Sequence record: DRR378314_462
DNA length: 40,944 nucleotides
Strand: one strand, 5' to 3'
The notes beneath the pieces are model-generated. The model was given only the letters and a program-made list of their open reading frames with translations, ran no database searches and was not told the origin of the DNA. Both the position numbers and the translations under genes were made by a program. Positions 23,455 to 40,524 of the stretch are shown here, piece by piece; the stretch's first letter is position 1, and each line of letters starts with the position of its first letter.

Positions 23455-23467
23455 TTTTGGAAACTTT

Positions 23468-24004
23468 CTACTGCTTGAAATCTTCAGGTTGAGGCTGGTT
23501 ACTTATCCGCATCAAAATGCCGGCAAGCATATGGATCAAAATAAGGGTAAAGGCAATCGGCACAGCAGAGGTGAACCAGATCATCTGCAGCGGTAACATT
23601 TCAGCCTGACGTCCTAAACTCCGCCCCAAAAAGCCCAGGGCCATGTTCATATTAATGCCAAAGATGGAATACCAGATCACAGGCACCGCAAAGAGCGTGA
23701 CACCGCAGGCCCGGATCAAGCCAAGGCTCATCCCGGCAAAACCGGGGACTTTGACCATGGCGGGAAATAAAGTCGGATCTGCGTGCAGACGAAAGGCAGC
23801 TGATGCCCCAAGCATTCCAGCCCAAACCATAGCCCGCCTCGCCAACTCTTCAGTCCAAACGGGTGGTGCGTCCAGTATATACCGGCTCACCACCTGCCAG
23901 GACGCGGCAAATACCATGACTGCGACTGCCAGAACCGCCCCCCAAAGGGCAACCCTATTCAGCCAGAGGGAAAGCTGATCAAGATATCTTGCCGCCCGTT
24001 TCAT
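23468..24004 (-). CDS. dctQ: TRAP transporter small permease
   Basis: QVVSRY......WTEELAR..MVW...LGA; 4 TM. Confidence 0.9.
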   Translation of the reverse strand: MKRAARYLDQLSLWLNRVALWGAVLAVAVMVFAASWQVVSRYILDAPPVWTEELARRAMVWAGMLGASAAFRLHADPTLFPAMVKVPGFAGMSLGLIRACGVTLFAVPVIWYSIFGINMNMALGFLGRSLGRQAEMLPLQMIWFTSAVPIAFTLILIHMLAGILMRISNQPQPEDFKQ

Positions 24005-24007
24005 TGC

Positions 24008-24985
24008 TTATTTCCCTTTAGCTTTTTCCCATTCAGCAATTTGCTCCTGGGAGAGAAGACCACTGTTGTAAGCCGGTGCAGACGCTTTGCGAAATTCTTC
24101 CCGCTGGGCTTCTGTCAGCTTTGAAATGGTGACGCCAGCCGCCTCCAGTTTTCCAAGTACCGCATCCTGGGTCTTCAGCCATTCACGGTTTGCTTTATTG
24201 GCGGCGGCAACGCCCATATCAACAACTTCCCGATCTTTCTTGCTGAGCCCCTGATACCAGGATTCCGATGCAATTGTGATCCGTAAAGAAGGGGCAACTG
24301 CCGCATTTGTGAAATATTTGATGAAATCAGTATGCCCGAACAGAAGCGGCACAAAAGCCGGGTTCATATAGCCATCAGCAACACCTGTCTGCAGTGCGTT
24401 GGGAACTTCCGCCCAACTGACGATAGTTCCGGTTGCCCCCCATGCTTTGTAAAGCTCAATCTGGCTTTCATCCAGCGCCCGCATGCGCAGCCCTTTCATA
24501 TCTGCAAGGGAATTAACCGGTTTCTTGGTATTAAAAATACCGGTCGCCTGACCGACTGCATTGACGGCCAGAACGCGAACACCGCTTGGGATCGTCTTTT
24601 CATTGATCTTTGCCAGCATACCGCCTTCAATCATGGCATGGTCTACTTCTGCCATGCTGGAAAAGAAATACGGAAGACGCAGACCGTAAATCAACTTATC
24701 CAATGAGCCGACAATATTCAAAGGTGACATGGAGACTTCAAGAAGGCCCTGGCTGACCTGATCGAACAATTCATCATCACCACCAAGTGCTCCGCGTTGA
24801 TATTCTTCGGCTTCAACCCCGTTTTCATTCAAATATGTGTTGAACGTATGGGCCCAAACATAACTTCCTGATCCTTCAAGATTTGGGGGGCTATCCAGTG
24901 CAATTTTGACTTCTGCACCGGCAGTCCCGGACAAAGCAAGTCCGGTTGCCACCAAACCTGTCATAACTAATTTACGAATTCCCAT
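24008..24985 (-). CDS. dctP: TRAP transporter substrate-binding protein
   Basis: Signal peptide; GALGGD, LPYFF, DMKGLRMR, WAEVPNALQTGVADG; start 24985 with AAGGAG SD. Confidence 0.92.
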   Translation of the reverse strand: MGIRKLVMTGLVATGLALSGTAGAEVKIALDSPPNLEGSGSYVWAHTFNTYLNENGVEAEEYQRGALGGDDELFDQVSQGLLEVSMSPLNIVGSLDKLIYGLRLPYFFSSMAEVDHAMIEGGMLAKINEKTIPSGVRVLAVNAVGQATGIFNTKKPVNSLADMKGLRMRALDESQIELYKAWGATGTIVSWAEVPNALQTGVADGYMNPAFVPLLFGHTDFIKYFTNAAVAPSLRITIASESWYQGLSKKDREVVDMGVAAANKANREWLKTQDAVLGKLEAAGVTISKLTEAQREEFRKASAPAYNSGLLSQEQIAEWEKAKGK

Positions 24986-25025
24986 CGATCTTCTCCTTGT
25001 TAGATGTTTCTTCATTTTAATTTTT

Positions 25026-26315
25026 TTATCCGCCGCCCATGAACCCCAATGCCCTGGGCAAATACAAACTGATTTCCGGTACGCGAACCAACAGGATCAA
25101 CACCCCGATCTGCACCAGAACAAAGGGAAGTATCCTCCACGCCAATCGCCAGTAATTCACGCCTGTGACTGTTGAGACGACAAGCAGGCATCCCCCCAAA
25201 GGCGGGGAGACCAAACCAATACAGAGGTTAAAGCAAAGAACAATCCCCAAATGAACAGGATCGGCCCCATGAGCCAAAGCAATAGGCGCAAGGAGTGGCA
25301 CCAGCAATGCCAATGCCACCGGAATATCCAGCACCATCCCCGCAATCAGGAAAATCACGTTCAATGCGATCATATAATCGGTCGGCCCAAGTCCAAGAGC
25401 GGCAACTGTATCTGAAATCGCTTCCGGGATCCGCTCAAGTGCGCCCAAATACCCAAGCGCAGATACCGCGCAGATAATGATGAAGATAGACCCCGACAGC
25501 ATGGCAGTTCGGCGAAGCCCCTCCAGAACAGAATCCCACTTCAGACCTTCATAGAACCAGCCCGCGCCAAGGGCGGCGAAAACAGCAACGGCGGCGGCCT
25601 CGGTCGGTGTCATCCAGCCAAACACGATCCCCCCCAGAATGATCACGGGCAACAGCAAAGCTGGCAGGGAATTCAACAATGTCGGAAGGAACGCAGGCGC
25701 ATCGCCTGCCTCAACCCGAGGATGATCGTGCCGCCATGCAAAAAAGGCGTTCACAATGATTAGAGAGCCCGCCAGAATTAACCCGGGAAAAATCCCAGCC
25801 AGAAAAAGAGACGTGACAGATGTCCCCATTAACGCCCCATAGAATATCAGAATGATGGAGGGGGGTACAATCGGACCGATGATTGAGGAGGCTGCAGTTA
25901 TTGCACTGGCATAAGTCAGGGAATATCCCCGCTCCCGCATGGCAGGGACAAGCGTATTGGAAAGGGCGGCGGCATCTGCGACCGCAGAGCCGGAAATTCC
26001 GGCAAAAAACACACTTGTCAAAATATTCACATGCCCAAGGCCACCCCGAAGGCGCCCCACCAGCGCCATGGAAAGGTTTATCAGTGCCGTTGTCACCCCA
26101 CCCCGGTTCATAAATTCCCCTGCGAGAATGAAAAGCGGCATGGCCATCAAGGCGAACACATCTATTTTAGAAAAAATCTGCTGCGGCAGGATCGCAAGAT
26201 ACCGCCCCTTATCAGCCAATATGAACGCCAACACCGTGCTGCCACCAATCACATAGGCGATGGCAAGACCGGAGGCGAGCAGAATAATCGCAATAAGCGG
26301 AACAAGCTGGATCAT
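25026..26315 (-). CDS. dctM: TRAP transporter large permease
   Basis: AMPLFILAGEFM, GISGSAVAD, PIVPPSI, TPTEAA, DPVHLG, SPPLG. Confidence 0.95.
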   Translation of the reverse strand: MIQLVPLIAIILLASGLAIAYVIGGSTVLAFILADKGRYLAILPQQIFSKIDVFALMAMPLFILAGEFMNRGGVTTALINLSMALVGRLRGGLGHVNILTSVFFAGISGSAVADAAALSNTLVPAMRERGYSLTYASAITAASSIIGPIVPPSIILIFYGALMGTSVTSLFLAGIFPGLILAGSLIIVNAFFAWRHDHPRVEAGDAPAFLPTLLNSLPALLLPVIILGGIVFGWMTPTEAAAVAVFAALGAGWFYEGLKWDSVLEGLRRTAMLSGSIFIIICAVSALGYLGALERIPEAISDTVAALGLGPTDYMIALNVIFLIAGMVLDIPVALALLVPLLAPIALAHGADPVHLGIVLCFNLCIGLVSPPLGGCLLVVSTVTGVNYWRLAWRILPFVLVQIGVLILLVRVPEISLYLPRALGFMGGG

Positions 26316-27442
26316 GCGGCAATCCCCATTCGGTTTCTGGACAAATCAATTTCCGTCACGCCTTGATCAACAAGATCTGAAGGAAGTGGTTTTGACAGCA
26401 CCAAAGCCGCTGCCGCCCTGGCCAGCGCGGGAGCCGTTTGAATGCCATATCCCCCCTGCCCGGCAAGCCAGAAAAAGCCGGGCGCTGCGGGATCATATCC
26501 AGCCACCGGGCATTTATCGGCGACGAAACTTCTAAGTCCGGCCCATTTATGATCAATCCGCCGAACGTTCAGATCAAATGCCTTTTCAATGCGATCCACA
26601 CAAATCGCGACATCAAGGTCTTCGGGTTGTGCATCGCAAGGCACAGATGGAGTTTCATCAGCCGGTGATAACAGTAACTTGCCTGCATCCGGCTTCAGAT
26701 AAAACTCCTCATCAACATCTACTGTCATGGGGTAACTTTCAATCACTGCACCGGCTGGCGGTGAGACAAGGAGTGCTGTCCGACGCTTGGGAACAAGATC
26801 GATCGGCGAAATTCCCGCCAACGATGCGAGAGGATCTGCCCATGCCCCGGCCGCATTGACTACAATTGGCGCCTTGAAACGATGCGAACCAGTTTCAACG
26901 CACCAGTTCGACCCAGATCTATCAAGCCCGATCACCTCCTGGTGACAAGAGAGTTCACCCCCCAAAGATTTGAAAGTCTTCAAATAAATCTGATGCAGCC
27001 CATCCACATCAATGTCGGAGCTATTTGGATCATACAGGGCGTTCGTCACATAAGATGTCCGAAGCAAAGGCAGCCGGTCGTTAGCCCCGGCCCCATCTAA
27101 TAACTGAACCGCATCTTTGAAATCTTCGTGCATGACAGCCAGAGTTTCTTTTTGATCCTGACGGGCTAAGAACAAAAGACCCCGCGGCTTTAGAAGGTCA
27201 CCGCTAAAATGGCTAGTGTTTGGGTTCTTAAAAAACGGGACGGAAGCGCGGGACAAGGCGCGAATGACAGGTGGACCATAAAGACACGTGAAAACTGCGG
27301 CAGAACGCCCTGTAGTGTGATAGCCAGGCTGGGCTTCTCTTTCCAGCAATATGACTTTGTTTGATCCGGCGAGCTCCGCCGCTATCGACGCCCCTGCGAT
27401 GCCGGCTCCGATGACAATAATATCACAAGCGTTTTCTTGCAC
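26312..27442 (-). CDS. FAD-dependent D-amino acid dehydrogenase, DauA (D-arginine dehydrogenase)-like
   Basis: IGAGIAGAS, LEREAQPGYHTTGRSAA, VNAAGAWAD, PKRRTA, FYLKPDAG, WAGLRSFVAD, GQGGYGIQT. GTG at 27442 preferred (ORF track starts at 27487). Confidence 0.88.
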   Translation of the reverse strand: MQENACDIIVIGAGIAGASIAAELAGSNKVILLEREAQPGYHTTGRSAAVFTCLYGPPVIRALSRASVPFFKNPNTSHFSGDLLKPRGLLFLARQDQKETLAVMHEDFKDAVQLLDGAGANDRLPLLRTSYVTNALYDPNSSDIDVDGLHQIYLKTFKSLGGELSCHQEVIGLDRSGSNWCVETGSHRFKAPIVVNAAGAWADPLASLAGISPIDLVPKRRTALLVSPPAGAVIESYPMTVDVDEEFYLKPDAGKLLLSPADETPSVPCDAQPEDLDVAICVDRIEKAFDLNVRRIDHKWAGLRSFVADKCPVAGYDPAAPGFFWLAGQGGYGIQTAPALARAAAALVLSKPLPSDLVDQGVTEIDLSRNRMGIAA

Positions 27443-27486
27443 GCCGTCATACCCCCACTTTTTATTTCCTAAAACCGTAACACTCA

Positions 27487-27524
27487 TTTTCCGATAGGAA
27501 AAGAATTTTTTTCCAATAGGAAAA
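27487..27524. promoter_or_regulatory. Tandem palindromic operators
   Basis: TTTTCC-gata-GGAAAA (27487-27502) and TTTTCC-aata-GGAAAA (27509-27524), 22 bp apart. Confidence 0.75.
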
Positions 27525-27529
27525 TTCAG

Positions 27530-27558
27530 TTGGCACCGCAGACAAGTGTTTTTATAAT
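27530..27558 (+). promoter_or_regulatory. Sigma70 promoter for the XRE regulator
   Basis: TTGGCA-N17-TATAAT, ending 7 nt before the ATG at 27565. Confidence 0.7.
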
Positions 27559-27564
27559 CAGCCC

Positions 27565-28161
27565 ATGATCAAAAGTCCGACATCCGAAAAACAGCGAAAT
27601 GAGTTTGGCAAGCGCCTTCGCGATCTGCGACAGGAAAGGGGCTGGACTCTTTCTGAAGTCGCGGAACGCTCAGGCCTTGCCATTTCTACCGTTTCAAAGG
27701 TGGAGCGGGGAATTATGTCACTAACCTATGATCGCTTGGCTTTATTGGCGTCCGGCCTTGGTGTTGATATGGCGACTTTCTTCTCTGCCAAGGGACAAAA
27801 TTTTAAGCCGGGCAGTTTTGCTGTCGCGCGAAAAGGTGAGTTTGAACAGCAGGAGACAAAGAATTATGTCTACGACATGCTGTTCCCGGATATTTGGCAT
27901 AAGTCAATGACCCCAATGATGGGTACCTTAAAAGCCCATGATATTCTGGATTTTGAGGATTTTGTTCGGCACCCCGGGCAGGAGTTTTTATTCGTGATTG
28001 AGGGTGTGGTGACTGTTCATATGGAAAGCGATGAAGCTGTCACTCTGCAAGCTGGGGAAAGCATCTATTTTGATAGTGCCCGAGGGCATCTTTATGCATC
28101 CACTGGGGATCAAGACGCGCGGATTCTTGTCGTCTGTACAGCGATTGAAACTGATACATAA
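27565..28161 (+). CDS. XRE-family HTH + cupin transcriptional regulator
   Basis: GKRLRDLRQERGWTLSEVAERSGLAISTVSKVERG; cupin HPGQEF..VIEG...L..GESIYFDS..GH. Confidence 0.94.
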   Translation: MIKSPTSEKQRNEFGKRLRDLRQERGWTLSEVAERSGLAISTVSKVERGIMSLTYDRLALLASGLGVDMATFFSAKGQNFKPGSFAVARKGEFEQQETKNYVYDMLFPDIWHKSMTPMMGTLKAHDILDFEDFVRHPGQEFLFVIEGVVTVHMESDEAVTLQAGESIYFDSARGHLYASTGDQDARILVVCTAIETDT

Positions 28162-29169: not shown

Positions 29170-30120
29170 TTAGTTGGGAGAGAGCCCCAAAAAGGTGCCA
29201 TCGCTGCGACGGGTTACTTCTCGCATCAAAACGCCAAATCGCCCCGAAGTCCCGGGTGCAACGAAACCAATCGCATGAATGCGCGCTAACGGTTTGCCGG
29301 TAATTTTATTGGTGTTATATCGCTCCAGCCGGTCAATGACGTCGTTGTAGGAAGCACCGGTATAATCATCACCGATGATATAAATGGAAAGACTGATACC
29401 CGGCTTTGCATATTTCTTCAGAGCAACCTCTAGTCCTTCAACCGGACTACTGTTGGAACTACTGCGCCAACTGGAAAACGCCTTAAAGATATTCTGCCGG
29501 CGATTGGCCGTGTCGGGGATCCATTTCCCGCTATAGGCCGAGATTAAATGCACACCATTATCATTGAGGATCTGGAAGCCCTGTACCTTTGGATGGATGG
29601 CCAGAACGTTCTGCATTTCCCGTGTCACCTGCCGCCAGATAGCCTGCATACTGCCCGATGTATCTACAATAAACAGGACATAATCACTATCCACCGGAAT
29701 ACCGCCCACTTCCTCATCCCGCTTTTTAGGGTTGGTCGCCGGCCTGATGGTTGCACGGTTTAAACTCTCTTCGACCAGCTGCAACCCTTCCAAGTCATCT
29801 TCTGCTTTTGCCTCTGCCTGTTTAGCGGATTGTTTTTCCTGTTCAAGTTTTCGCACCGTTGCTTCCAACTGACCGATTTTTCCCTGACTGGAATTCAACT
29901 CTCCATCCATTTGGGATTTACGGGATTCCAGATCATCAATCATGCGTTCTGCTTTGGTGATTTGGGCCAATAAGTCCCTGGCCTGATCCATGGTTCCGTT
30001 AAATTCTCCATCCCCGGTTTTTGAAATCAGGATTAGCAGAACCACAGCCCCGAAACCGCAAGAGATGAGGTCCAGGAAGGAGAGGCTGAATAACTCCAAC
30101 GTCCTATTGCGGCGCCTCAT
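29170..30120 (-). CDS. ExbD/MotB-like TM anchor + coiled coil + vWA domain protein (B subunit 2)
   Basis: N-terminus FSLSFLDLISCGFGAVVLLILI; heptad-rich stalk; MIDAS FIVDTSGSM ... IYIIGDD ... IHAIGF; ATGA overlap with the upstream gene. Confidence 0.85.
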   Translation of the reverse strand: MRRRNRTLELFSLSFLDLISCGFGAVVLLILISKTGDGEFNGTMDQARDLLAQITKAERMIDDLESRKSQMDGELNSSQGKIGQLEATVRKLEQEKQSAKQAEAKAEDDLEGLQLVEESLNRATIRPATNPKKRDEEVGGIPVDSDYVLFIVDTSGSMQAIWRQVTREMQNVLAIHPKVQGFQILNDNGVHLISAYSGKWIPDTANRRQNIFKAFSSWRSSSNSSPVEGLEVALKKYAKPGISLSIYIIGDDYTGASYNDVIDRLERYNTNKITGKPLARIHAIGFVAPGTSGRFGVLMREVTRRSDGTFLGLSPN

Positions 30121-31187
30121 GGCCAACTCTCCGCTGGGCTGATCAGCAAACCCTTCGTTGCGAAGGTCCATCCCCAAAGCGCTGGCGCTGCTTCGGGGTC
30201 CCCTTCCAAGGGTAATAAAACAATATTTACCGGCCGCCCTTTATGAATGCCTTCTTTTTTGACAGTATGCTGAAACAGCTTTAGACGGCATTCCCCTGAA
30301 ATTGTTGAAGATTTTCCAAAGAGCGATGTACATTTTGAAAAGGGATTAATCGATCGATAGTTGGATGTTCCCTTGGTTGGCAAGCCGTCCGTCACCAGAT
30401 AATAATTTGTCGGTTGATCAGAAAAACCATTCACCGTTTCCAGTACCGCTTCCAGGTTTGTCGCCCCGGCGGGAACGACCCGATCTATGCTGTCAAATAC
30501 CAGTTGAACCGAAGCTGCATCAGAACCGGAAAACCAGTCGGAGGGGCCAATTGCAAATGCTTTTTCATTAAATCCGACAAACCTTGCGCGCGACTGTTTG
30601 GGAATGCGATTGGCCAACCATTTGACAATTCGCTGTACCCTCAGCCATTTCGGTCCTTGCTTCTTTTCCGCGTCAGAACTTGTTTTCCGGCTGATAATGT
30701 CGACCAGCATCTCATCCGTCATGGATGCGCTCGCGTCAATCAGAAACATAATCCGGCGTCCTTCAACTTTCAGCCCCAGCAGATATTCCTCTTCGCCGCC
30801 CTGATCAGATTGGACGACATCCGCTTTTTCCAACGGAGGCTTTTTGACGATCCGCTCTTTGACATTTTCAACATCCGCCACCTTATCCTCAGTCCGACTT
30901 TTAAACTCAGCAATAGAGCCCTGCAAATCCTGCTGCTGTCCGGAAAGACTTTGCAGCTTGGCTGTCAGTAGCTGGAGCTTCGCTTCCTGTTCAGTAACCG
31001 AGACTTCCAAGGCATCCACTTTGTCCTGACGCTGCTGAAGCTCCTGTTTCAGGCTATCCACTTCAACCGGCGTGTCTTCAGGTTGCAGTTTCAGCAGGAT
31101 CAAAATCAAAATGGCCGCACCAAGACCACAGGCCATAATGTCCAGGAACGAAAGATTAAACCCTTCTGTATCGTGGCGTTTGCGCAC
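30117..31187 (-). CDS. ExbD/MotB-like TM anchor + coiled coil + vWA domain protein (B subunit 1)
   Basis: N-terminus FNLSFLDIMACGLGAAILILILL; coiled coil; MIDAS FLIDASASM ... TNLE ... YLVTDGLPT. Confidence 0.85.
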   Translation of the reverse strand: MRKRHDTEGFNLSFLDIMACGLGAAILILILLKLQPEDTPVEVDSLKQELQQRQDKVDALEVSVTEQEAKLQLLTAKLQSLSGQQQDLQGSIAEFKSRTEDKVADVENVKERIVKKPPLEKADVVQSDQGGEEEYLLGLKVEGRRIMFLIDASASMTDEMLVDIISRKTSSDAEKKQGPKWLRVQRIVKWLANRIPKQSRARFVGFNEKAFAIGPSDWFSGSDAASVQLVFDSIDRVVPAGATNLEAVLETVNGFSDQPTNYYLVTDGLPTKGTSNYRSINPFSKCTSLFGKSSTISGECRLKLFQHTVKKEGIHKGRPVNIVLLPLEGDPEAAPALWGWTFATKGLLISPAESWP

Positions 31188-31197
31188 AGATGGCTTC

Positions 31198-31971
31198 CTA
31201 TTTACTGACGCGGTTCAAAAGGAATTTTTCGCAATATTCCTGGGTTCGGATCAACTGACCGTCCTGAAACCGCTGCAAGCCATGCAACAACAGCATTAGC
31301 GGAATTGAAAGACAAAGCGCCACCAGGGTTGAATTAAACGCAACACCAAGGCTATCTGTCATAAGGGTAATATCACCCGCCAGTGCTTCATCCGCCTGGG
31401 TTAATGCGGCACCGATGCCGCGAACTGTTCCAATAAAACCAAATGATGGAATGGCCCATATCACAAAACGGATCATGGTGTTGCCCGCATCCTGACGCAA
31501 GGCCAAGGCATCAACACTTAATGAAATCGCCTCCGACGTGCTATGAACATCATCGGTCATCAAATAGCGGCGAATACTGGCAAGCAATGTCTGCACCACT
31601 GGTGTGGTCGTAATTTTTTCCGGCAGTTGATCAATTTCCTGCATCGTTTTTCGCAATGTCTGTTTTTCATCTTCGCCCTCACCGGCCTCCAACATCGCAC
31701 CCAGAAAATCGATCCCATAAAGATGGTTATCGTTAAAAATTCCCCAATATCGGGCAAGGAGGAGACAAAGACACCAAAGGGCCAGCGTCACACAGATTTG
31801 CTGTTCCCAATCCTTAACAATTACAGTCAGTACCTGCGGTGCAGCCTCCCCTGCCTGGCGTGCAAGCGCGACCAGGCGTTCGGCCTCCGGGATGATGGCA
31901 ATCCAATAGATGAACCAGACACCCAAGGCACAGATCAGAAGCAACCCAGTGGCAAGAACAAAATTTTTCAT
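31198..31971 (-). CDS. MotA/TolQ/ExbB proton/ion channel family protein
   Basis: IWAIPSFGFIGTVRGIG and LGVAFNSTLVAL..S TM pair, plus two N-terminal TM segments. Confidence 0.9.
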   Translation of the reverse strand: MKNFVLATGLLLICALGVWFIYWIAIIPEAERLVALARQAGEAAPQVLTVIVKDWEQQICVTLALWCLCLLLARYWGIFNDNHLYGIDFLGAMLEAGEGEDEKQTLRKTMQEIDQLPEKITTTPVVQTLLASIRRYLMTDDVHSTSEAISLSVDALALRQDAGNTMIRFVIWAIPSFGFIGTVRGIGAALTQADEALAGDITLMTDSLGVAFNSTLVALCLSIPLMLLLHGLQRFQDGQLIRTQEYCEKFLLNRVSK

Positions 31972-32115
31972 TTAAATATCCACCGGAAAAGAGACAGGAG
32001 AGTTAAGCGTAATCGCAGATTTTCCACTTTGCGCATAGGCATATTGAAACAGAAAAACGGCCCCCAGGATTGCCAAACCCACAATCACATATTTTTGTCG
32101 CTTAATTTGTTTCAT
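31972..32115 (-). CDS. 47-aa signal-peptide microprotein ending FPVDI (not in ORF track)
   Basis: MKQIKRQKYVIVGLAILGAVFLFQYAYA|QSGKSAITLNSPVSFPVDI*. GAGGA SD, ATGA overlap with the upstream stop, and its TAA abuts the next ATG, so it fills the gap exactly. Confidence 0.85.
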   Translation of the reverse strand: MKQIKRQKYVIVGLAILGAVFLFQYAYAQSGKSAITLNSPVSFPVDI

Positions 32116-34118
32116 TGGACATCCTCATATAAATAACGGGCGATCCTAAAGCCGATTTTGTCGCTTCCTTCAGAAGCAGATGCCCGATAAGCCGGGCGCA
32201 GCTCTGTTAATGTTCCAGACGCCCAGTTAGATCCCTTTGTCATATGTTTCTGGCCGGTCTGATCACCAAGCGGGTCTTTAAAGGTTTGTGTCTTGAGCGG
32301 TGGCACGAGGGTATAATAATCATGAACCCATTCGGACACATTCCCAAATAGATCATACAAACCGGCTTGGTCCTTTTGAAAACTCTTTACTGGTGCCACC
32401 CCGGCATAACCGTCCACATATCCCGGAACATAAAACTTGGTTTTGCCGTTCGCTGCCTCGTCTGCGATATTGCCAGCGCCCTTTGGAATAACCGCTTCAT
32501 CGCCCCATGGGAAAATTGTCTGCTGTTTCCGTTTCGCCTTGCGCGCAAGCCATTCCCACTCCGCTTCACTTGGCAAGCGGTAACCTGTTGACGCTGGGTC
32601 GAAGCCTGCATATCTGGCTCCGTTAAACCGATAAAAAGGTGGCAGCTCCTCGCGCTCGCTTAACCAGTTGCAATATTGGGCAGCCTCACTCCAGTCGATG
32701 TTTGTCACTGGAAAATCTGGTCCTGCTTTATTAATGCGGCGAAATTGACTGAACTGCTTCTCTGTCACTTCGGTTTGGGCAATATAAAAATGGCGTTTCA
32801 ACGTAATCTGGCGCAGAAATTCGTTAGCCCTTTGTCCCTTTTCATGACGGGGCGCACCCATCAATATATCTGTCGGCTTAAACAAGATCATGTTCATGTT
32901 AGCCAGATTTTTGTAAGTCGGCTTGGCGGACGCCAATGTTGCTTCTTCGTTGGTCTTTAGTGTTACTGAAATCGTCGTCACCCGCGCTGGCGTCGGGCGG
33001 AATACCTTTTTCACCGTTTCATAGCCTTGCTTTTGCAAGGTGATTTCGTGGGAAATTGCAGGGAGCCGCAAGGTGGCGGGTGTCGTGCCATGCGGCTGGC
33101 CATTTATCATCAACGTGGCCGGGGGATCCGCCTGAATTCGAACTTCACCTATTCGAAGTTTCAGATCAAAGGCGACTTTCTTGCGCTCATCTGCCCGCAA
33201 GGTGACTTCCTGTTCCTGATATCCATATCCATCTTTTTCGTATCGAACATAATATTTCTGATTTGGCGCCAACTGGATATCCGACCCGGCCCGAACCGAT
33301 TTGCCGTTCACAGTCAACCTGCCCCCAGACGGATCAACCGATGCTGTAACAAAAGCCGGTTTTTGCTGCAGTCGATAATGACGATCCACCTGACTGTTCG
33401 AAAAGGTGATATCAATCTGATCAACTATAGGTGCAAATCCCTGCTTGGTAATCTTCACATCGTATAAACCTGCAGGCACTTCGAATTCTGCAGGTATAGT
33501 CTGCACAATTTCCCCGTTAAACATCACGGTTGCATCCGGTGGTGTCACATTAAGGGTCAAAGACCCCATTGCGGGTTTAAGCTCAAACGATTGTGTGAGC
33601 GTTTCACCGCGAGCTAGCTCAAGCTCTGTTTCCAACGGTTGAAAATACGGATGCTCGATCCTGAGATCAAAACGCCCTGCATCCAAGGTTGCTTCAAAAT
33701 TCTGTACCGGTGGGTACATCTGATCATTTAAATACCACGTCACAGGTTCGGTCAGGTTTGCGACATTCAGGTCAAGTTTGCCTGGCAATGGAACCATCTG
33801 TAAATTTAGGGTCTTTCCTTCTTCTTCAGGGTCGATAATTCGCGGCAGCTCTTCAAAACCGGGGGACTTGGCAGTAATCTTTGGATAACGCGAGAGCGAA
33901 AAAAGGCTTCCCTGCACATAAAATCCAATTCCGTCATCCACCTGAATTTCGGCAGCCTGAGCTGCGTCCAAAGGCGCAATCCGAACAGATGTCACTTTCA
34001 TCAGAAATAGAAAAACAGCGGACGCGAGCACAGCACCTAAAAGGATTACGCCTAAGCCCAGCAGAACAACCTGCTGCCGCCTGGCGGCTTTTTCAATTTG
34101 ATGTTTAAATTCGCTCAT
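32112..34118 (-). CDS. Membrane-anchored PEGA-repeat + FGE-sulfatase (SUMF1/PvdO-like) domain protein
   Basis: N-terminal TM; PEGA-type repeats (G.L.LNVTPPDATV..NG, G.YDVKITKQGF, ADPPATLMING...GTTP); FGE motifs TEVT, PV.NI.W.EA..YCNWLS, YRLPSEAEWE, GLYDL.GNV.EW, IGFR. Confidence 0.9.
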   Translation of the reverse strand: MSEFKHQIEKAARRQQVVLLGLGVILLGAVLASAVFLFLMKVTSVRIAPLDAAQAAEIQVDDGIGFYVQGSLFSLSRYPKITAKSPGFEELPRIIDPEEEGKTLNLQMVPLPGKLDLNVANLTEPVTWYLNDQMYPPVQNFEATLDAGRFDLRIEHPYFQPLETELELARGETLTQSFELKPAMGSLTLNVTPPDATVMFNGEIVQTIPAEFEVPAGLYDVKITKQGFAPIVDQIDITFSNSQVDRHYRLQQKPAFVTASVDPSGGRLTVNGKSVRAGSDIQLAPNQKYYVRYEKDGYGYQEQEVTLRADERKKVAFDLKLRIGEVRIQADPPATLMINGQPHGTTPATLRLPAISHEITLQKQGYETVKKVFRPTPARVTTISVTLKTNEEATLASAKPTYKNLANMNMILFKPTDILMGAPRHEKGQRANEFLRQITLKRHFYIAQTEVTEKQFSQFRRINKAGPDFPVTNIDWSEAAQYCNWLSEREELPPFYRFNGARYAGFDPASTGYRLPSEAEWEWLARKAKRKQQTIFPWGDEAVIPKGAGNIADEAANGKTKFYVPGYVDGYAGVAPVKSFQKDQAGLYDLFGNVSEWVHDYYTLVPPLKTQTFKDPLGDQTGQKHMTKGSNWASGTLTELRPAYRASASEGSDKIGFRIARYLYEDVQ

Positions 34119-35604
34119 TACTGATTACCGTTACCTCAATCTGTCGATCCTCCGGCTTTATTGTGACCGAAACCGATTTCGTTCTAAAGCCTTCCCGCCG
34201 CCCTTCAAACATATACTCTCCCGGTTTCAGTTTGATCTTGTAGCGTTCAACCACACCGACTTTTCCAATCCCCCGTACACTGACATTTGTCAATTGATCG
34301 GAGATCACCCAGACTTCGACTTCAATATTTCGGCGTTCGATTTCAGTCTCAAGTTTGTTTTCAAGCTTGGCAAGGCCGGGGCTTAACGCTGAATAAAGAG
34401 CGGCAGCCTCCAGCGTCCGGTCCGCCTGTTTGCGAACTGTTTCTGCTGACAGTCGCTGGGGTGCCCCCAGAAATTTCTGAATTTGTGCCGTCGCCTGCAA
34501 TATTTTTTCTGACAGATTTATCGTTTCAACGATTTCTCCATTATTCGGTCGCAGGGCATTTGCATTTTGATATTGTCTCAACGCTTCATCCCAATCATCT
34601 GCTTGGATAGCAGCCTCACCACCTGCTACGAACTGCCGAAAGCTCAACTCTTCTTTCAACTGATTAACCAGCCGCAACAGATTTTCAGTTTCCTCCCGAT
34701 TTGGAAATATCTGCCTGGCCTTTGAATATGCTGATTGCAGCTTTTGAAGATTTTCTTCACGGCTTGCCGCCAGTCCTGCTGCCACATGTCGATCATAAGC
34801 CTGTTCTGTCAGCAGGGACTCTATGTCTTTAATTCGTTGCTCATATGTTATCCGATCCGGATCCAATTCAACAACCTGTTTGGAGAGCGCCAGTTCCTTT
34901 TCCAAATTATTTTCGGTCGCCGCCACACGGGCTTGATCGATCAGGCCCAAAAGCATCGGTAATTTTTCAATACGCGACAGTAAATTCAAAGCCTGTTCAT
35001 CTACTGGCTTCAATTCTAAGGCACGATTAATCTGAAATAAGGCTTCGGCATGATCATCAGCCTGAAAAGCCAGGCGCGCATTGATCAGCGCCTCTTCAAA
35101 AGTTGCTTCATACTGTGCGGTGGCTGTACTTGCTGCCGAGATCAACTTATTGGCTTCTTCAAATGCCGGTTCCAATTGGCCATTGGCAAGCTGTTGAATG
35201 ATTTGATCCTTCAGGGACAGCAAGTCTTTTTGTATCTGACTATCCCATCCTCCAAACCCTTCGGATTTTACTGTTTCCTCATACGTCATTTCATAGCGGT
35301 TCAGAACGTCTATTATCTCTTGGCGGCTGCGATCTTGGGATATTTGCGGAGTAGAAGGTATCGGCGGGGTTGAGGGCTCCAATTGAGGATCAGTTTTCTC
35401 AACAGTGTATGGCTGTCTTTCCGGTTGCAGCTCCGACGGCACCTCCATGACAGGATCCGCCGTCTGTACAGCAGACTGATGATCGAGCTGGGTGACCAGA
35501 TAAATAACGGCCGCTCCCAACAGCAATATCAACACGGCCAAAACCGTTATCATTAACTGATTTCGGGATTTCCGGGTCGCTTCTTCCAGCTTCTGTTCCA
35601 ACAT
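34105..35604 (-). CDS. Membrane-anchored Pro-rich linker + TPR/helical repeats + C-terminal PEGA-like beta domain protein
   Basis: N-terminal TM; PSTPPIPSTP linker; TPR-like ALELKP, VELDP, NALRP turns; C-terminal LKPGEY.FEG.REGFR. Confidence 0.75.
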   Translation of the reverse strand: MLEQKLEEATRKSRNQLMITVLAVLILLLGAAVIYLVTQLDHQSAVQTADPVMEVPSELQPERQPYTVEKTDPQLEPSTPPIPSTPQISQDRSRQEIIDVLNRYEMTYEETVKSEGFGGWDSQIQKDLLSLKDQIIQQLANGQLEPAFEEANKLISAASTATAQYEATFEEALINARLAFQADDHAEALFQINRALELKPVDEQALNLLSRIEKLPMLLGLIDQARVAATENNLEKELALSKQVVELDPDRITYEQRIKDIESLLTEQAYDRHVAAGLAASREENLQKLQSAYSKARQIFPNREETENLLRLVNQLKEELSFRQFVAGGEAAIQADDWDEALRQYQNANALRPNNGEIVETINLSEKILQATAQIQKFLGAPQRLSAETVRKQADRTLEAAALYSALSPGLAKLENKLETEIERRNIEVEVWVISDQLTNVSVRGIGKVGVVERYKIKLKPGEYMFEGRREGFRTKSVSVTIKPEDRQIEVTVISNERI

Positions 35605-35612
35605 GGCGCTTG

Positions 35613-36836
35613 TTACAGTTGTTTTTCAGGTGTCTTTTCCTGCTCATAAATTTCTTTCAGGAAACTCCGCCACTCTGAAAACTGCTTTTCTGCCGTTCCG
35701 GTCAATTCTTTGGTTTCTCCTTCAAACTCAACGACTTGAGGTGCCAATTCTGCATCTACGGATTCGCCTAGCTCATCCAATGTATCAGCATGGAATTTGG
35801 TTTCATTGCTGGTTTTAAAGGCTTCGGAGAAAAGAACAGCTGATCCCACGCCAGCAACCGCTGCGCCAGCCATTGCCCCAGTTGAGCGGCCATAACTGCC
35901 ACTATTCCCACTGGCAACAGCCAGCCCAACACCTAAAATCGCCAGCAAAACACCGCCAACCACCTGGGCCGTCTGTTTCTCTTCCGCTTCTTTTAAAGCA
36001 ATTTCAGCTTCCTGGCTTTGCTTTTGCCAAACGACATAACTGGATGACAGATTAGCGTTAAAGGCTTCATAATGTTGCTGCAGATTATCCACGTAAAGCT
36101 GGTCTCTAATTCGGATCGCCCGAATTCGACGCAGCATTGGATCTTCTTCACTTGGCAGGCTCACCAACTCTATTTTACCATCTTGTTCTCGGATATGCTC
36201 TGCAAAGGCCTGCTCTGAAAAGTTACTGCCAAACCGCATTTCAGTAACTGATTTCAGTAAGGCCAGCTCGGTCGCATCCGCAAGCTCCAACCGCTTCACA
36301 AGGTCATCAGCAGCCTGTTCAAAAAGCGGATCATAAGGATCCTTGCCTTTGTTTCGAATGTTTTGATGAAAACGCTCCGACACTTCATGTTCATACTCTT
36401 CCTCGTACCAGGGAGCGCCGGATATATCTAAAACGTTGAGAGACATACCCACTTCCAAACCAGTGGATTTATCAATGGTTCCAAGGATATAAAGATCGCC
36501 TGTCGCTTCTGAATTGGGCGTAACACGTACAGCCCCAAACTTTCCAGTCGCCTCCAGCTTATCTTTTAAATTCAAAGCGAAACGGACGGCTTCGGCCTTG
36601 CGAAGTTCCGGCCAAATTCGCTCTTCTTGCAGAACATCATCATCTTCTGGGATGTTGGGATCAAATTCAGGGATGATAATATCCAACTTCGGGCGATCCG
36701 CTTCAGGCGTCACTTTTGCAGCTGCCATCACGTCACTGGAAACACGAGGCCCCACCCGGGTGGACATACCCGGTGTCACGCAACTGGTTAAGAGAAAACA
36801 GCTACACACCAACCAGCCCAAAAGATTTTTGACCAT
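35613..36836 (-). CDS. Lipoprotein with coiled coil and glycine-zipper hydrophobic hairpin
   Basis: Lipobox LTS|C; VVGGVLLAILGVGLAVA...GAMAGAAVAGVGSAVLF; GGAGAG SD before ATG 36836. Confidence 0.75.
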   Translation of the reverse strand: MVKNLLGWLVCSCFLLTSCVTPGMSTRVGPRVSSDVMAAAKVTPEADRPKLDIIIPEFDPNIPEDDDVLQEERIWPELRKAEAVRFALNLKDKLEATGKFGAVRVTPNSEATGDLYILGTIDKSTGLEVGMSLNVLDISGAPWYEEEYEHEVSERFHQNIRNKGKDPYDPLFEQAADDLVKRLELADATELALLKSVTEMRFGSNFSEQAFAEHIREQDGKIELVSLPSEEDPMLRRIRAIRIRDQLYVDNLQQHYEAFNANLSSSYVVWQKQSQEAEIALKEAEEKQTAQVVGGVLLAILGVGLAVASGNSGSYGRSTGAMAGAAVAGVGSAVLFSEAFKTSNETKFHADTLDELGESVDAELAPQVVEFEGETKELTGTAEKQFSEWRSFLKEIYEQEKTPEKQL

Positions 36837-36861
36837 ACTCACTCTCCACATGTCCGCCCGT

Positions 36862-37458
36862 TTAAATCTGAGGCAATCCCTTTAACTTGCGATATTCATT
36901 CCACAACTTCGCCCGCTTTTCAGGGTTCGGTTCATTTTCGGCAGCTTCGCGAACCCGTTGCTGCAGTATACTATCATTATCTGTCGCAGGTATATCTTCA
37001 GGTGCTTTCCCATTGTTTAAAGTTTGCTGTTGCCGTGCAGTGGATTGCTGATCGCTCTCTCTTGGGTCAATAGGATTACTGGCAGTTGCATCAGTTTCAG
37101 CTTTTGCCTCGGCCTGTTCTGTTCCCTCTATTCCTGTTGATGCCGTTGAAGCTGCAGAAGCACCCGCCGCGCCGCTGCCTGATCCACTGCCATCAGAACC
37201 TGAAGATCCGTTGCTATTTTGACTGGCAGAGGATTGCTGCAAGCAGTTTTCATATTTATTCAACGACTCAAATAGCGCGCTATCCATTCGCTCTGTGATT
37301 TCCTGCTGCGTCAGCCCCTCTCCTCCTCGATACTCAACGGCATTCTCAGAGCAGTCATTATTTTCATTAGATTGCCCATGGGCAACCGGCGCAAGCCAAA
37401 TGCAGCATGCGAAGACAAGAGACAACGGCACGTTCAGGAACTGTTTCATAACCCGCAT
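36862..37458 (-). CDS. Exported hypothetical protein with Ser/Gly/Ala low-complexity linker and helical C-terminal motif
   Basis: Signal peptide ...PVAHG|Q; two Cys in the mature N-domain; C-terminus DNDSILQQRVREAAENEPNPEKRAKLWNEYRKLKG. Start could be 37470, 37458 or 37449. Confidence 0.7.
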   Translation of the reverse strand: MRVMKQFLNVPLSLVFACCIWLAPVAHGQSNENNDCSENAVEYRGGEGLTQQEITERMDSALFESLNKYENCLQQSSASQNSNGSSGSDGSGSGSGAAGASAASTASTGIEGTEQAEAKAETDATASNPIDPRESDQQSTARQQQTLNNGKAPEDIPATDNDSILQQRVREAAENEPNPEKRAKLWNEYRKLKGLPQI

Positions 37459-37484
37459 AAACACCATCACAAAAGCAGCCTTAT

Positions 37485-37513
37485 ATTTTAGAGGACCTCA
37501 TCAGACAGGTCAA
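37485..37513 (-). promoter_or_regulatory. Sigma70 promoter for the envelope operon
   Basis: Minus strand TTGACC-N17-TAAAAT. Confidence 0.7.
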
Positions 37514-37781: not shown

Positions 37782-38966
37782 TTATCCAGGAGATATTCCC
37801 CTAAGCCGTTCTGCGCGGCGTCTCAAAAATTCCAGCGTCGTCAACATCAGCACTGACAACACAACCAGTATAGTCGCCACAGCCAGAATGGTCGGGCTGA
37901 TTTGCTCCCGCAGACCTGTAAACATCTGCCACGGCAATGTTTTCTGCCCTGCCGAGCCGACAAAGAGAACCACAACCACCTCATCAAATGAAGTGATAAA
38001 GGCAAACAAACCACCGGAGACCACGCCTGGCAAAATCAGGGGCATCTGTACCCGGAAAAAGGTCGTGATCGGGTTCGCGCCCAGGTTGGCTGCCGCGCGT
38101 GTCAAGCTATGATCAAATCCAACAAGTGTGGCTGTCACCGTGATAATGACGAACGGTATGCCAAGAGCCGCATGGGCAAGTACGACGCCAACATATGTCC
38201 CCTGCAAACCAACCCGGCTGTAGAAGAAATACATGCCCGCTGCAGAGATGATTAACGGCATGATCATCGGAGAAATCAAGATCGCCATTATTGCCCGGCG
38301 AAAAGGAACAAACGGCTGGCTAAGACCGATCGCCGCTAGCGTGCCTAACGTAACAGATATGATTGTTGCCGCAGGTGCAATTGCAAAACTATTCTTGATG
38401 GCCCCTTGCCAATCGGAATTGGTAAAGAAATCTTCATAATGCTTTAGAGAATAGCCCGCAGGATCGAAGTTCAACATCTCTGGTGTGAATGTGAAAAAGT
38501 TCTCTGCATTAAAGCTGAGCGGCATCACTACGATAATCGGGGTAATCAGGAAAATGAAAATCGCCCAGCAAATAACAACGAAAGTGTGATGCCAAAGCAC
38601 TTGGCCAGTTGTCGCATAGGATGGAAGACGTCGCCGATATTCGCCTGTGGCGATCCAGAAGACAAACCAGTTGAAAACCCAACCAAAAATAACACCAATT
38701 ACCGCACCTGATATCTGCGCCTGCAAATACCCAAGAACAAGCCCAACTGCGAGCAGAACGAATTGGGATATCCGTTTCGACTTAATCAGCCGAACCATCA
38801 GGAAAGCAGCGATAGCGCCGACAACCAAACCCGCTGCAATGCCGACCAAGGGCATATTCTGGGTCATTCCAAACAGCAACCCAAATGCGGCTAGGAAGAA
38901 GGCGCCTCCGCCAGCGATTAACTGGTTCGTGGCGATGATTGCTTTTTCTTTTTTCAGTACGGTCAT
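37782..38966 (-). CDS. Polyamine-type ABC transporter permease (PotC-like) with extra N-terminal TM region
   Basis: FLITPIIVV.PLSF, SP.I.P.I, AH..LG.PFV, EAA-like LTRAAANLGA, F.TSFDEVV, TLP. Confidence 0.9.
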   Translation of the reverse strand: MTVLKKEKAIIATNQLIAGGGAFFLAAFGLLFGMTQNMPLVGIAAGLVVGAIAAFLMVRLIKSKRISQFVLLAVGLVLGYLQAQISGAVIGVIFGWVFNWFVFWIATGEYRRRLPSYATTGQVLWHHTFVVICWAIFIFLITPIIVVMPLSFNAENFFTFTPEMLNFDPAGYSLKHYEDFFTNSDWQGAIKNSFAIAPAATIISVTLGTLAAIGLSQPFVPFRRAIMAILISPMIMPLIISAAGMYFFYSRVGLQGTYVGVVLAHAALGIPFVIITVTATLVGFDHSLTRAAANLGANPITTFFRVQMPLILPGVVSGGLFAFITSFDEVVVVLFVGSAGQKTLPWQMFTGLREQISPTILAVATILVVLSVLMLTTLEFLRRRAERLRGISPG

Positions 38967-38970
38967 ATCC

Positions 38971-40524
38971 TCAGCCCCCCAGTTTGACGTTATCGATGCC
39001 GACAATTCGGTCATAAGCCCAATAGAGTAGCAGGACCACAAGCAGCAAAATGGTTCCGAGTGCGGCTGCAAGACCCCAGTTTAGTGAACTTGAAATGTGG
39101 TAGGCAATCCGGTTTGAAATAAAAGTGCCCGTTGTTCCACCAACAATTTCCGGTGTGATGTAATAGCCGATGGATAGAATAAACACTAGGATGGACCCAG
39201 CCCCGATACCTGGAACCGACAACGGGAAATAAACCCGCCAAAATGCAGTCCAATTGGTCGCCCCAAGTGACTTTGCCGCCCGGGTATAGGTCTCGGGAAT
39301 GGTTCGCATCACTGAGTAAAGCGGTAGGACCATGAAGGGTAATAGAATATGTGTCATGGCAACGATTGTACCAAACTGATTATTAATCAAAACCAGCCGT
39401 CCCGCTTCATCCACCAGATTAAGCCAGACCAGGGTATCATTAATGACGCCCTGCTGTTGCAGCATCACCTTCCAAGCTGAAGTTCGAACCAGCAACGAGG
39501 TCCAAAACGGCAAGAGGACCATGATCATCAGGAGATTGGCTTCGCGCGCGGGCCGGTTGGACATTAGCCATGCAATCGGATAACCGAGTAGGATCGCACA
39601 TCCGGTAATCACCATTGACATAAACAGGGTTCGCCCGAACAGAATCCCATAAATCCGTTCATTCTCAGGCCGAACCGAATAGCCGTCAAAATCCTTCTTC
39701 AGATCCGCAGCATTCAAGAAATAACCTTCAGTATATGTGGACGAGTAGGTTCGAAGCGTTTTCCACACATCCTCACTTAACCAGTCTTTATCAAATTTCT
39801 GAAATGCGGCTCTAAAATCCACAGTTTCAAAATCAGAGACAGCGTTGGCCGATTTCTGGATGAGGGCATTCCCGGCTGTATCGCCGGAGATTTGTCTCAT
39901 ATCATCGTAAAGAGCGACGAAGAGAAAATCTTCGAGCCCCTCTTCTTTGGGGACATCCCCATCTTCTATGACATACTCCTGCCAGGCTGAATAAGCCCAC
40001 ATCGCCCGGGGCAAGACGTCATTAACCGCATCATCCTCGGACAGCGTCTGCCAAGTTGCGTAGTCATTCCATTTGGGATCAATTGCTGCAAACTGGTCTC
40101 TGTATACTTCCACATCAAGGCGGCGAACCCGGCGCCCGGACTTACGGAATAACGAAGAAATACCTGTTTGCTCATAATTCAAGCGCGAGCCAAGGCGTGT
40201 ATGTTCTTTCTTTTCAGCAGCAACATACATATCCACGTAAAGCGCAGAAAACGTCGCCTGACCGGGAACGATCGGAGCTTTCTCCTCGTCCTCATCTATC
40301 ATCGCGACGGTTTGCGGCAGTGTTTCTTCGACGATCTTATTCTCTACAGATCGGAATAACATATCCGCAATGGGGGCAATAAAAGTAATTAGAATGAATG
40401 CCAGCAAAGGTGCAATCAGCATCAGAGCCCTAAATTTCTGCAGTCGCAATGACCGTTGCAAGCTGCGTTTTAGGGGCGTCCCGTCAGCTGCCAACACGGG
40501 ACCATCTTTGATCGTATCACTCAT
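38971..40524 (-). CDS. Polyamine-type ABC transporter permease (PotB-like) with large periplasmic insertion
   Basis: LLGYPIA, LPFWTSLLVRT.AW, HILLPFMVLPLY, RAAKSLGA, G.YITP..VGG, NWGLAAAL. Confidence 0.92.
   Translation of the reverse strand: MSDTIKDGPVLAADGTPLKRSLQRSLRLQKFRALMLIAPLLAFILITFIAPIADMLFRSVENKIVEETLPQTVAMIDEDEEKAPIVPGQATFSALYVDMYVAAEKKEHTRLGSRLNYEQTGISSLFRKSGRRVRRLDVEVYRDQFAAIDPKWNDYATWQTLSEDDAVNDVLPRAMWAYSAWQEYVIEDGDVPKEEGLEDFLFVALYDDMRQISGDTAGNALIQKSANAVSDFETVDFRAAFQKFDKDWLSEDVWKTLRTYSSTYTEGYFLNAADLKKDFDGYSVRPENERIYGILFGRTLFMSMVITGCAILLGYPIAWLMSNRPAREANLLMIMVLLPFWTSLLVRTSAWKVMLQQQGVINDTLVWLNLVDEAGRLVLINNQFGTIVAMTHILLPFMVLPLYSVMRTIPETYTRAAKSLGATNWTAFWRVYFPLSVPGIGAGSILVFILSIGYYITPEIVGGTTGTFISNRIAYHISSSLNWGLAAALGTILLLVVLLLYWAYDRIVGIDNVKLGG

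Follow-up and report, generated by a model that had tools for sequence, protein, structure and literature searches.

What is a 47-codon open reading frame (ORF) doing between the gene for a protein with an FGE-sulfatase domain and the gene for a MotA/TolQ/ExbB-type channel subunit, and what might its product contribute to the system encoded around it? The ORF in question lies on the minus strand of sequence record DRR378314_462, a stretch of 40,944 nucleotides (nt) that was analysed at its full length and is referred to here as the window. It occupies positions 31972..32115 (stop codon included), encodes MKQIKRQKYVIVGLAILGAVFLFQYAYAQSGKSAITLNSPVSFPVDI, and appears in an ORF listing when the minimum length is set to 30 residues, being absent at the default of 60. 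An earlier note on this DNA had proposed that a hidden gene for a secreted peptide ending FPVDI is located here.

A small gene within a conserved eight-gene operon

The peptide ORF is a genuine gene, with tight translational coupling, in a conserved eight-gene operon. Its ATG (32115-32113) overlaps the TGA (32114-32112) of the gene for a 668-residue protein with PEGA repeats and an FGE-sulfatase domain, and its TAA (31974-31972) directly abuts the ATG (31971) of the gene for a 257-residue MotA_ExbB protein. The 47-residue reading frame, the ATGA overlap, the abutting stop and start codons and the GAGGA Shine-Dalgarno-like motif had all been described in the earlier note, and every one of them was found at the locus; relatives carry GGAGA or GGGGA in the position of the GAGGA motif. 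When the loci in which both ends could be placed were compared (the window included), the 4-nt overlap between the peptide start and the FGE-like stop was seen in 14 of 19. The geometry of the junctions varies from locus to locus, with gaps of 0-24 nt between the peptide stop and the MotA-like start (21 of 21 loci) and overlaps ranging from -16 to +17 nt, the peptide starts in distant loci having been chosen heuristically. A 197-residue ORF on the plus strand (31543..32136), which spans the peptide gene and runs over the beginning of the MotA-like one, was treated as an antisense shadow, because the substitutions fit the minus frame.

Matches to the peptide were found in 0 families of Pfam and NCBIfam. 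In the ESM Atlas its best feature score was 0.84, where 0.9 is the lead level, and every match was a 'hypothetical protein'. A search with the single sequence yielded only one relative, and a profile was needed to reach the family. This profile was built from 20 peptides, L006 and L010 being omitted as near-duplicates, and at E<=1 it matched 3298 proteins among 6435 candidates of 25-137 residues in 5.8 billion sequences; at E<=0.001, 638 representatives were matched in 1.84 billion sequences. All the source names shown for the family were 'hypothetical' or 'uncharacterised', and a Pfam domain was present in none of its members.

A search for FP.DI-stop beside genes of the tolQ/exbB type, which the earlier note had suggested as a check, was carried out on 20 genome loci found via the MotA-like protein, and a small ORF ending FP[VIS]DI-stop was present between the FGE-like and MotA-like genes in all 20. 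By their titles, these loci comprise ten from Sneathiella, with Sneathiella litorea DP05 (L002), a cultivable organism, among the carriers of the operon, others from Alpha- and Gammaproteobacteria, a Methylophilaceae metagenome-assembled genome (MAG), a Puniceicoccaceae MAG and two MAGs labelled Klebsiella. The occurrence of small proteins ending FPxDI next to exbB-like genes in marine Proteobacteria, mentioned in the same note, was likewise borne out, with examples in Sneathiella, Haliea, Halioglobus, Methylophaga and others. In 80 metagenome loci that were seeded with the peptide itself, the MotA-like gene came next in 77 of the 77 with room downstream, and the FGE-like gene lay ahead in 63 of the 63 with room upstream. 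The gene order 202-412-499-668-peptide-257-356-316 (numbers are the lengths of the proteins in residues) is complete wherever the contig or the flanks allow.

The association was also followed in 401 genomes sampled evenly from the phylum, 20 of which carry the 316-residue paralogue, a vWA protein encoded at the end of the operon. The peptide profile matched 20 genomes of the sample, and 18 of these coincide with the vWA-positive ones. The remaining two matches were counted as false, as they leave the tail uncovered and fall in genomes that have no vWA gene. Conversely, the two vWA-positive genomes missed by the profile contain divergent peptides in the expected slot, ending ...TAFPVDI and ...DFPVNI (35 residues), so that with the divergent copies counted the peptide is found in 20 of the 20. 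One true copy per genome was present in each of three genomes searched whole. In none of the loci and genomes examined does the peptide gene stand apart from this operon and, because it always lies between motor genes, its product is probably a working part of the motor.

Export features and the C-terminal tail of the peptide

The window peptide begins with KQIKRQK, followed by YVIVGLAILGAVFLF. Signal-peptide features were scored on 258 family members by a heuristic of our own. Lysine or arginine precedes the hydrophobic core in 257 of them, a core with a mean hydropathy of at least 2.0 is present in 256, and small residues stand at positions -3 and -1 after the core in all 258. The commonest type of putative cut site is AxA followed by Q (98 members), then LxA and VxA, each again followed by Q (43 and 23, respectively). 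A lipobox, as recognised by signal peptidase II with Cys at +1, was found in none of the 258, and the window peptide is free of Cys. These counts agree with the signal-peptide-like N-terminus described in the earlier note, and a cut after AYA would release the same 19-residue peptide that it had given. Across subfamilies the hydrophobic segment shares no conserved residue, in line with what a signal peptide, and not a segment with a specific membrane partner, would show.

Across the family the predicted mature part measures 13-81 residues (median 31). The linker ahead of the tail runs from ∼ 5 to ∼ 60 residues of acidic or Pro-rich low complexity: the short forms have ∼ 5 residues before the tail, and the long forms carry acidic Pro-rich low-complexity sequence together with a second motif inserted before it. 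The tail itself follows the consensus I-S-(L/E)-(D/N)-(S/L)-(P/S)-V-S-F-P-V-D-I, with hydrophobic residues at alternate positions. Its final residues, in the form FP[VISA]DI, are the last five in 268 of the 269 family proteins compared; that the motif is present follows from the design of the search, whereas its placement at the very end does not. A separate search for longer forms gave 10 matches of 138-200 residues, all of which end in the motif and none of which has an internal copy. These we regard as forms with long linkers or over-called starts, and a fusion of the tail to a channel or vWA domain was not seen among them, which is weak evidence. Because the motif always stands at the very end, the 10 longer matches included, a free C-terminus appears to be required.

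Three unusual sequences were recorded. The sole exception among the 269 proteins, P0247 (76 residues), has its stop read through into an apparent MotA-like start, and may represent a sequencing error or a rare read-through. P0131 (183 residues), one of the 10 longer matches, consists of the end of an FGE-sulfatase domain, a linker and an FPVDI tail, and is probably the result of a frameshift at the 4-nt overlap rather than a true fusion. The most divergent operon found (locus L114 of genome G122, peptide at 5262-5369) encodes a 35-residue peptide that ends FPVNI.

Next, the tail was compared with the remainder of the gene at the codon level, using the ratio of nonsynonymous to synonymous differences (pN/pS) taken as uncorrected proportions. 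For nine Sneathiella-type genes the ratio was 0.374 overall, 0.129 over the last 13 codons and 0.458 over the rest; for 13 short-form genes it was 0.159 over the last 13 codons and 0.600 over the rest. At the F, P, V and I positions of the tail several synonymous codons are in use. Strong purifying selection acts on the last 13 codons.

Features of the better known motor proteins were also sought in the peptide. With the SHLS/His motif as it is defined in the main text of PMC12204202, the window peptide does not have the features of a TonB/TolA-type transducer, which are a membrane helix bearing that motif, a spacer and a globular C-terminal domain: its helix has neither a His nor an SHLS-type motif, and only 19 residues follow it. 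A membrane-helix Asp of the MotB/TolR/ExbD type is absent as well, D46 being the sole acidic residue of the peptide.

Neighbouring genes of the operon

The operon consists of eight genes, all on the minus strand and tightly packed. Their coordinates, and those of the elements of the peptide gene, are collected in Table 1.

Table 1. Positions in the window of the peptide gene, its parts and the other members of the operon
Feature	Position	Strand	Basis or remark
Small-peptide gene	31972..32115	-	ORF translation; kept in 20/20 genome loci and 80 metagenome loci
GAGGA Shine-Dalgarno-like motif	32122..32126	-	6 nt before the ATG, within the 3' end of the FGE-like gene
Predicted Sec signal peptide, codons 1-28 (KQIKRQK n-region, hydrophobic core, AYA)	32032..32115	-	Sequence and family heuristics; cleavage inferred
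Predicted mature 19-mer QSGKSAITLNSPVSFPVDI, codons 29-47	31975..32031	-	Inferred from the AxA site followed by Q
C-terminal strand ITLNSPVSFPVDI, codons 35-47, alternate hydrophobic residues	31975..32013	-	F43, P44, D46 and I47 invariant (family alignments); pN/pS 0.129
668-residue protein: N-terminal membrane helix, PEGA repeats, C-terminal FGE-sulfatase-fold domain	32112..34118	-	
257-residue MotA/TolQ/ExbB channel subunit, four predicted membrane helices	31198..31971	-	PF01618, 45.3 bits (cut-off 22.9)
356-residue protein: TolR/ExbD-like Asp helix (SFLD), single helix of ∼ 73 residues, vWA domain	30117..31187	-	
316-residue paralogue: Asp helix, long helix, vWA domain	29170..30120	-	
499-residue membrane-anchored protein, weak TPR matches, conserved operon member	34105..35604	-	
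412-residue protein, lipobox-like LTSC (by eye), no family match, conserved operon member	35613..36851	-	
202-residue low-complexity protein, signal-peptide-like start, first of the conserved eight-gene order	36862..37470	-	
Sigma-70-like site, 10/12 matches, just upstream of the 202-residue gene	37485..37513	-	Consensus match only

The core of the operon is a TolQ-like channel together with two TolR-like Asp-helix proteins that carry vWA heads. In the channel subunit, 15 of 15 sequences share the invariant motifs GTVRGIG and AFNST of the last two helices. Helices 1 and 2 are joined by a predicted periplasmic loop (residues 28-60) in which P28, D54, E56, Q57 and C60 are invariant in 15 diverse homologues, with K53 nearly so, and this loop may be a docking surface. 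None of the eight proteins of the operon matched the ExbD, TolR or MotB families of Pfam or NCBIfam. Among the PADLOC anti-phage models, such as those for Zorya, none matched the peptide or the MotA-like and FGE-like proteins on either side of it, and the vWA proteins gave weak matches of the coiled-coil type only.

The two proteins encoded downstream of the channel gene share one architecture. Each begins with a helix of the form SFLD...CG.GA, continues into a single helix of ∼ 73-80 residues and ends in a C-terminal domain; they are 22-28% identical over the N-terminal 156-177 residues, and the SFLD Asp is invariant in both wherever the N-terminus is present. Pfam VWA matches fell below threshold (E 0.008 to 0.15), and a profile comparison with PDB sequences gave coiled-coil noise and weak vWA matches (E ∼ 0.06), so that a fold search was needed. 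The C-terminal domains of both paralogues were given a high-confidence fold by AlphaFold2, and Foldseek identified both as vWA domains (CLCA1, ANTXR2/CMG2, integrin I domains and BatB; probability 1.00, E ∼ 1e-7). In the 356-residue protein the full set of residues of a metal-ion-dependent adhesion site (MIDAS), D151, S153, S155, T243 and D267 (D151xS153xS155), is invariant in 19 of 19 sequences. In the 316-residue paralogue DTSGS, the loop SNSSPVEG and GDD are invariant, the second loop thus being SNSSPVEG and not a clear Thr, so that its MIDAS is a putative one. The presence of vWA folds with MIDAS-type motifs was correctly anticipated in the earlier note, as was the FGE-sulfatase domain (PF03781) upstream. 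For the 316-residue gene the longest ORF begins at a TTG at 30177, but alignments with homologues begin at the ATG at 30120; this ATG and the stop of the gene before it share 4 nt, an ATGA junction like that at the peptide gene. In genome G122, in which the peptide ends FPVNI, the 356-residue-type protein keeps DxSxS, T and D and the 316-residue-type protein has an altered second MIDAS-region loop; this lineage is a single, very divergent data point, and nothing is drawn here from the loop change.

The 668-residue protein upstream matched PEGA (2.4e-32) and FGE-sulfatase PF03781 (2.5e-38). Its best NCBIfam match is GldK (TIGR03525), at 87.8 bits with a cut-off of 350. The catalytic Cys pair of FGE lies near the C-terminus; Cys is absent from the last ∼ 180 residues of the FGE-like domain, and among 16 homologues not one Cys is invariant, which makes FGE-type catalysis unlikely.

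In some versions of the operon, of Gammaproteobacteria type, an extra ORF of ∼ 460 residues separates the MotA-like gene from the first of the vWA genes (it lies at 6756-8135 in L018 and at ∼ 2440-3766 in L113, and accounts likewise for the gaps of L019 and L020). By eye it had been taken for an Hsp70/actin-like protein, an assignment that is unsupported (0 Pfam families and nothing among PDB sequences). The stretch picked for the last vWA gene of L012 (7097-8095) holds an internal stop, and the tblastn match to the FGE-like protein in L017 (∼ 5762-5840) runs across the stop of that gene; each may be either a coordinate artefact or a real break. The flanks of the operon in the window (21164-28161 and 37782-40524) carry unrelated genes, including an EamA-family gene recognised by family match and, by eye, genes for transporter-like membrane proteins, an oxidoreductase-like protein, a plus-strand regulator and ABC-permease-like proteins.

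Proposed role and comparison with known systems

The reading that we favour, and hold to be probable, is that the product is exported by Sec, cleaved, and docks by its C-terminal strand on a periplasmic domain of the motor machine. The eight-gene operon would encode a proton-motive-force motor of the MotA/TolQ/ExbB type, whose inner 'B' subunits would be the two paralogues, each with its TolR-like Asp helix, long helix and periplasmic vWA head. The 47-residue product, once exported, would most likely be cut after AYA to leave a periplasmic peptide of 19 residues. The last 13 of these would be the working part, an extended strand with its hydrophobic side-chains on one face, ending in F-P-V-D-I and a free carboxylate, and through this terminal carboxylate the tail would dock permanently as a small subunit or adaptor. 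Among the candidate partners, the MIDAS of a vWA head is ranked first, because the hydrophobic-acidic-hydrophobic ending with its free carboxylate resembles known MIDAS ligands. The FGE-like domain, probably non-catalytic, is ranked second, because in true FGEs this fold accommodates short peptides that are extended and contain Pro, and because its gene overlaps the start of the peptide gene; the conserved periplasmic loops of the channel subunit are placed third.

A co-folding model was generated from four chains, namely residues 395-668 of the FGE-like protein, residues 118-356 and 128-316 of the two vWA proteins and residues 18-47 of the peptide. Three runs scored 0.76, 0.72 and 0.70; replacing the peptide gave 0.00 and 0.00 and replacing the FGE-like chain gave 0.62, the four-chain design making the control ambiguous, and the scores are taken here neither for nor against binding. 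A bolder proposal is that the motor is of a new 5:2 kind and that the peptide is secreted to serve its rotating vWA heads as an adaptor. The MIDAS would be completed by the carboxylate of the peptide together with the acidic or amide residue next to it, and the FGE-like domain, which a PEGA stalk would raise to about the height of the vWA heads, would grip the hydrophobic face of the strand. This we put forward tentatively and hold to be unlikely. If true, it would amount to a 'TonB box supplied in trans' and to the first ion-driven envelope motor in which force is passed through contact with a separate small peptide.

Several points weigh against the favoured reading of an exported and docked peptide. 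The Asp at position -2 is an Asn in one lineage (FPVNI), which means that a strict Asp-to-metal model is not universal, although the version in which the C-terminal carboxylate makes the contact, also raised in the earlier note, is left untouched. Unless it were tightly bound, a 19-mer set free in the periplasm would be open to attack by proteases. Between the last charged residue of the n-region and the predicted cut lies a stretch with a median length of 20 residues (22 in the short forms), which is at the long end for signal peptides and would be compatible with an uncleaved anchor. Finally, pS reaches 0.6-0.7 and is near saturation, so the pN/pS values are rough.

Were the N-terminal helix to remain uncleaved, the product would instead be a single-pass accessory subunit of the inner membrane, lying against the MotA-like pentamer with its tail at the periplasmic mouth of the motor, where it could serve as a tethered plug or as a miniature TonB/TolA-like arm. 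The long uncharged stretch of the short forms and the strongly basic n-region are in keeping with such an anchor, and so is the fact that the peptide gene always abuts the MotA-like gene; the acidic Pro-rich spacers of the long forms resemble those of TonB, and residues K53, D54, E56, Q57 and C60 of the MotA-like loop could receive a membrane-proximal tail. We nevertheless consider an anchor unlikely. Its hydrophobic segment would be one with no residue conserved across subfamilies, small residues stand at -3 and -1 in every one of the 258 members, and in the long forms the core is short and Pro or Gly precedes the site, as is typical of cleaved signals. The helix in the window has none of the transducer motifs, and a spacer that varies from ∼ 5 to ∼ 60 residues is hard to fit with a tether that must reach one fixed site.

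A different possibility, which we regard as improbable, is that the peptide is the thing acted on, whether as cargo, as a substrate or as a signal that is exported or released; it could, for instance, be a precursor that the FGE-like domain modifies or the motor moves. The peptide-binding habit of the FGE fold would suit such a role, the peptide gene directly follows and overlaps the FGE-like gene, and small secreted peptides are often signals. Set against this, the lack of Cys in the last ∼ 180 residues of the FGE-like domain, and of any invariant Cys, makes FGE-type catalysis unlikely, and Pfam and NCBIfam searches of the operon revealed no modifying enzyme, protease or ABC exporter. Signalling peptides, moreover, normally diversify, and the tail here is nearly invariant from Alphaproteobacteria to Puniceicoccaceae; a double-glycine leader is absent. 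That the ORF might be a mere device for translational coupling between the FGE-like and MotA-like genes, its peptide having no function of its own, is suggested by the ATGA and TAAATG junctions. This explanation is scarcely credible, given a tail with a pN/pS of 0.129 in which synonymous codons vary at F, P, V and I, the conservation of that tail across phyla while the geometry of the junctions varies, and the conservation of the signal-peptide features.

Flagella, gliding, nutrient import, phage defence and the integrity of the envelope all depend on motors of the MotA/ExbB/TolQ type. The loci assembled here indicate that a vWA-headed class of such motors comes as a fixed set of eight genes, which includes an obligate small peptide whose free C-terminus is almost invariant. 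The peptide family has no name, is covered by no model of Pfam or NCBIfam and did not turn up in the literature searched, and it is a fixed component of a recently predicted envelope motor; in the role proposed, the peptide would add a component to a motor system of the 5:2 type. The FPVDI-type motif provides a search key for the whole system, also where gene callers skip the small ORF, and the peptide gene is a clear case of a functional gene that falls below the 60-residue default of ORF listing. A synthetic 19-mer would offer a handle for the receptor, and point changes in the tail would make precise loss-of-function alleles.

The motor in question is of a kind predicted in PMC12204202 (Mol Biol Evol 2025), which has an example from Idiomarina and the main text of which describes tolQ-like genes that have no tolR, exbD or motB nearby and lie next to heterologous pairs of helix-tethered vWA proteins with a conserved Asp; it places this class in Proteobacteria and Verrucomicrobia and states that it has no known function. 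Judged by that description, the operon belongs to the same class, having a tolQ-like gene, no tolR, exbD or motB, and a heterologous pair of Asp-helix vWA proteins, and the loci found here likewise include Alpha- and Gammaproteobacteria and a Puniceicoccaceae MAG. The two differ in that the main text of that paper describes neither the secreted peptide nor, as a fixed set, the other four upstream genes; the terms sulfatase, FGE, formylglycine, PEGA and 'small protein' occur 0 times in it, although its figures or supplement may draw an unnamed small gene. The passages of PMC12505986 that were examined make no mention of vWA, sulfatase or PEGA. In the literature searched, no paper beyond PMC12204202 touches on the system or the motif, and 'FPVDI' occurs only in irrelevant papers.

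The order of an FGE-fold protein, a proton-channel subunit and a single-pass partner that spans the periplasm is shared with GldK-GldL-GldM-GldN of Bacteroidota gliding and type IX secretion. The likeness ends with the parts themselves, since the GldK score is far below its cut-off (no equivalog), the channel belongs to PF01618 rather than to GldL, and the partners are vWA proteins. To our knowledge, GldKLMN has no secreted-peptide gene, and we know of no characterised motor of the superfamily (MotAB, ExbBD-TonB, TolQRA, GldLM, AglRQS or ZorAB) with a separately encoded secreted peptide.

Parallels for the peptide itself may be drawn with three kinds of known segment. The MotB plug is the segment of MotB that comes directly after the membrane helix, and by analogy the peptide would be a short periplasmic segment beside a channel that could control ion flow; the B-like proteins here, however, run from that helix straight into a long helix, and the candidate is a separate secreted peptide. 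Ligands that act through a C-terminal tail or an acidic residue offer a second parallel. A free carboxylate or acidic residue completes the MIDAS of vWA domains in integrin I domains and in complement factor B with C3b, and the tails of outer-membrane proteins are sensed by DegS. The peptide would resemble these in its invariant free C-terminus, in its hydrophobic-acidic-hydrophobic ending and in the presence of two vWA domains with MIDAS-type motifs in its operon; it differs in that one lineage has Asn for Asp.

The third parallel is with the TonB box and the N-terminal peptide of TolB, which belong to large proteins of the outer membrane or the periplasm and bind the C-terminal domains of TonB and TolA by strand addition. 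In contrast to these, the peptide described here is a separate gene product with a predicted mature part of 13 to ∼ 80 residues, and the heads that it would meet are vWA domains. What the systems would have in common is a short extended peptide gripped by a periplasmic, force-transducing head, with a drive of the MotA/ExbB/TolQ type behind it.

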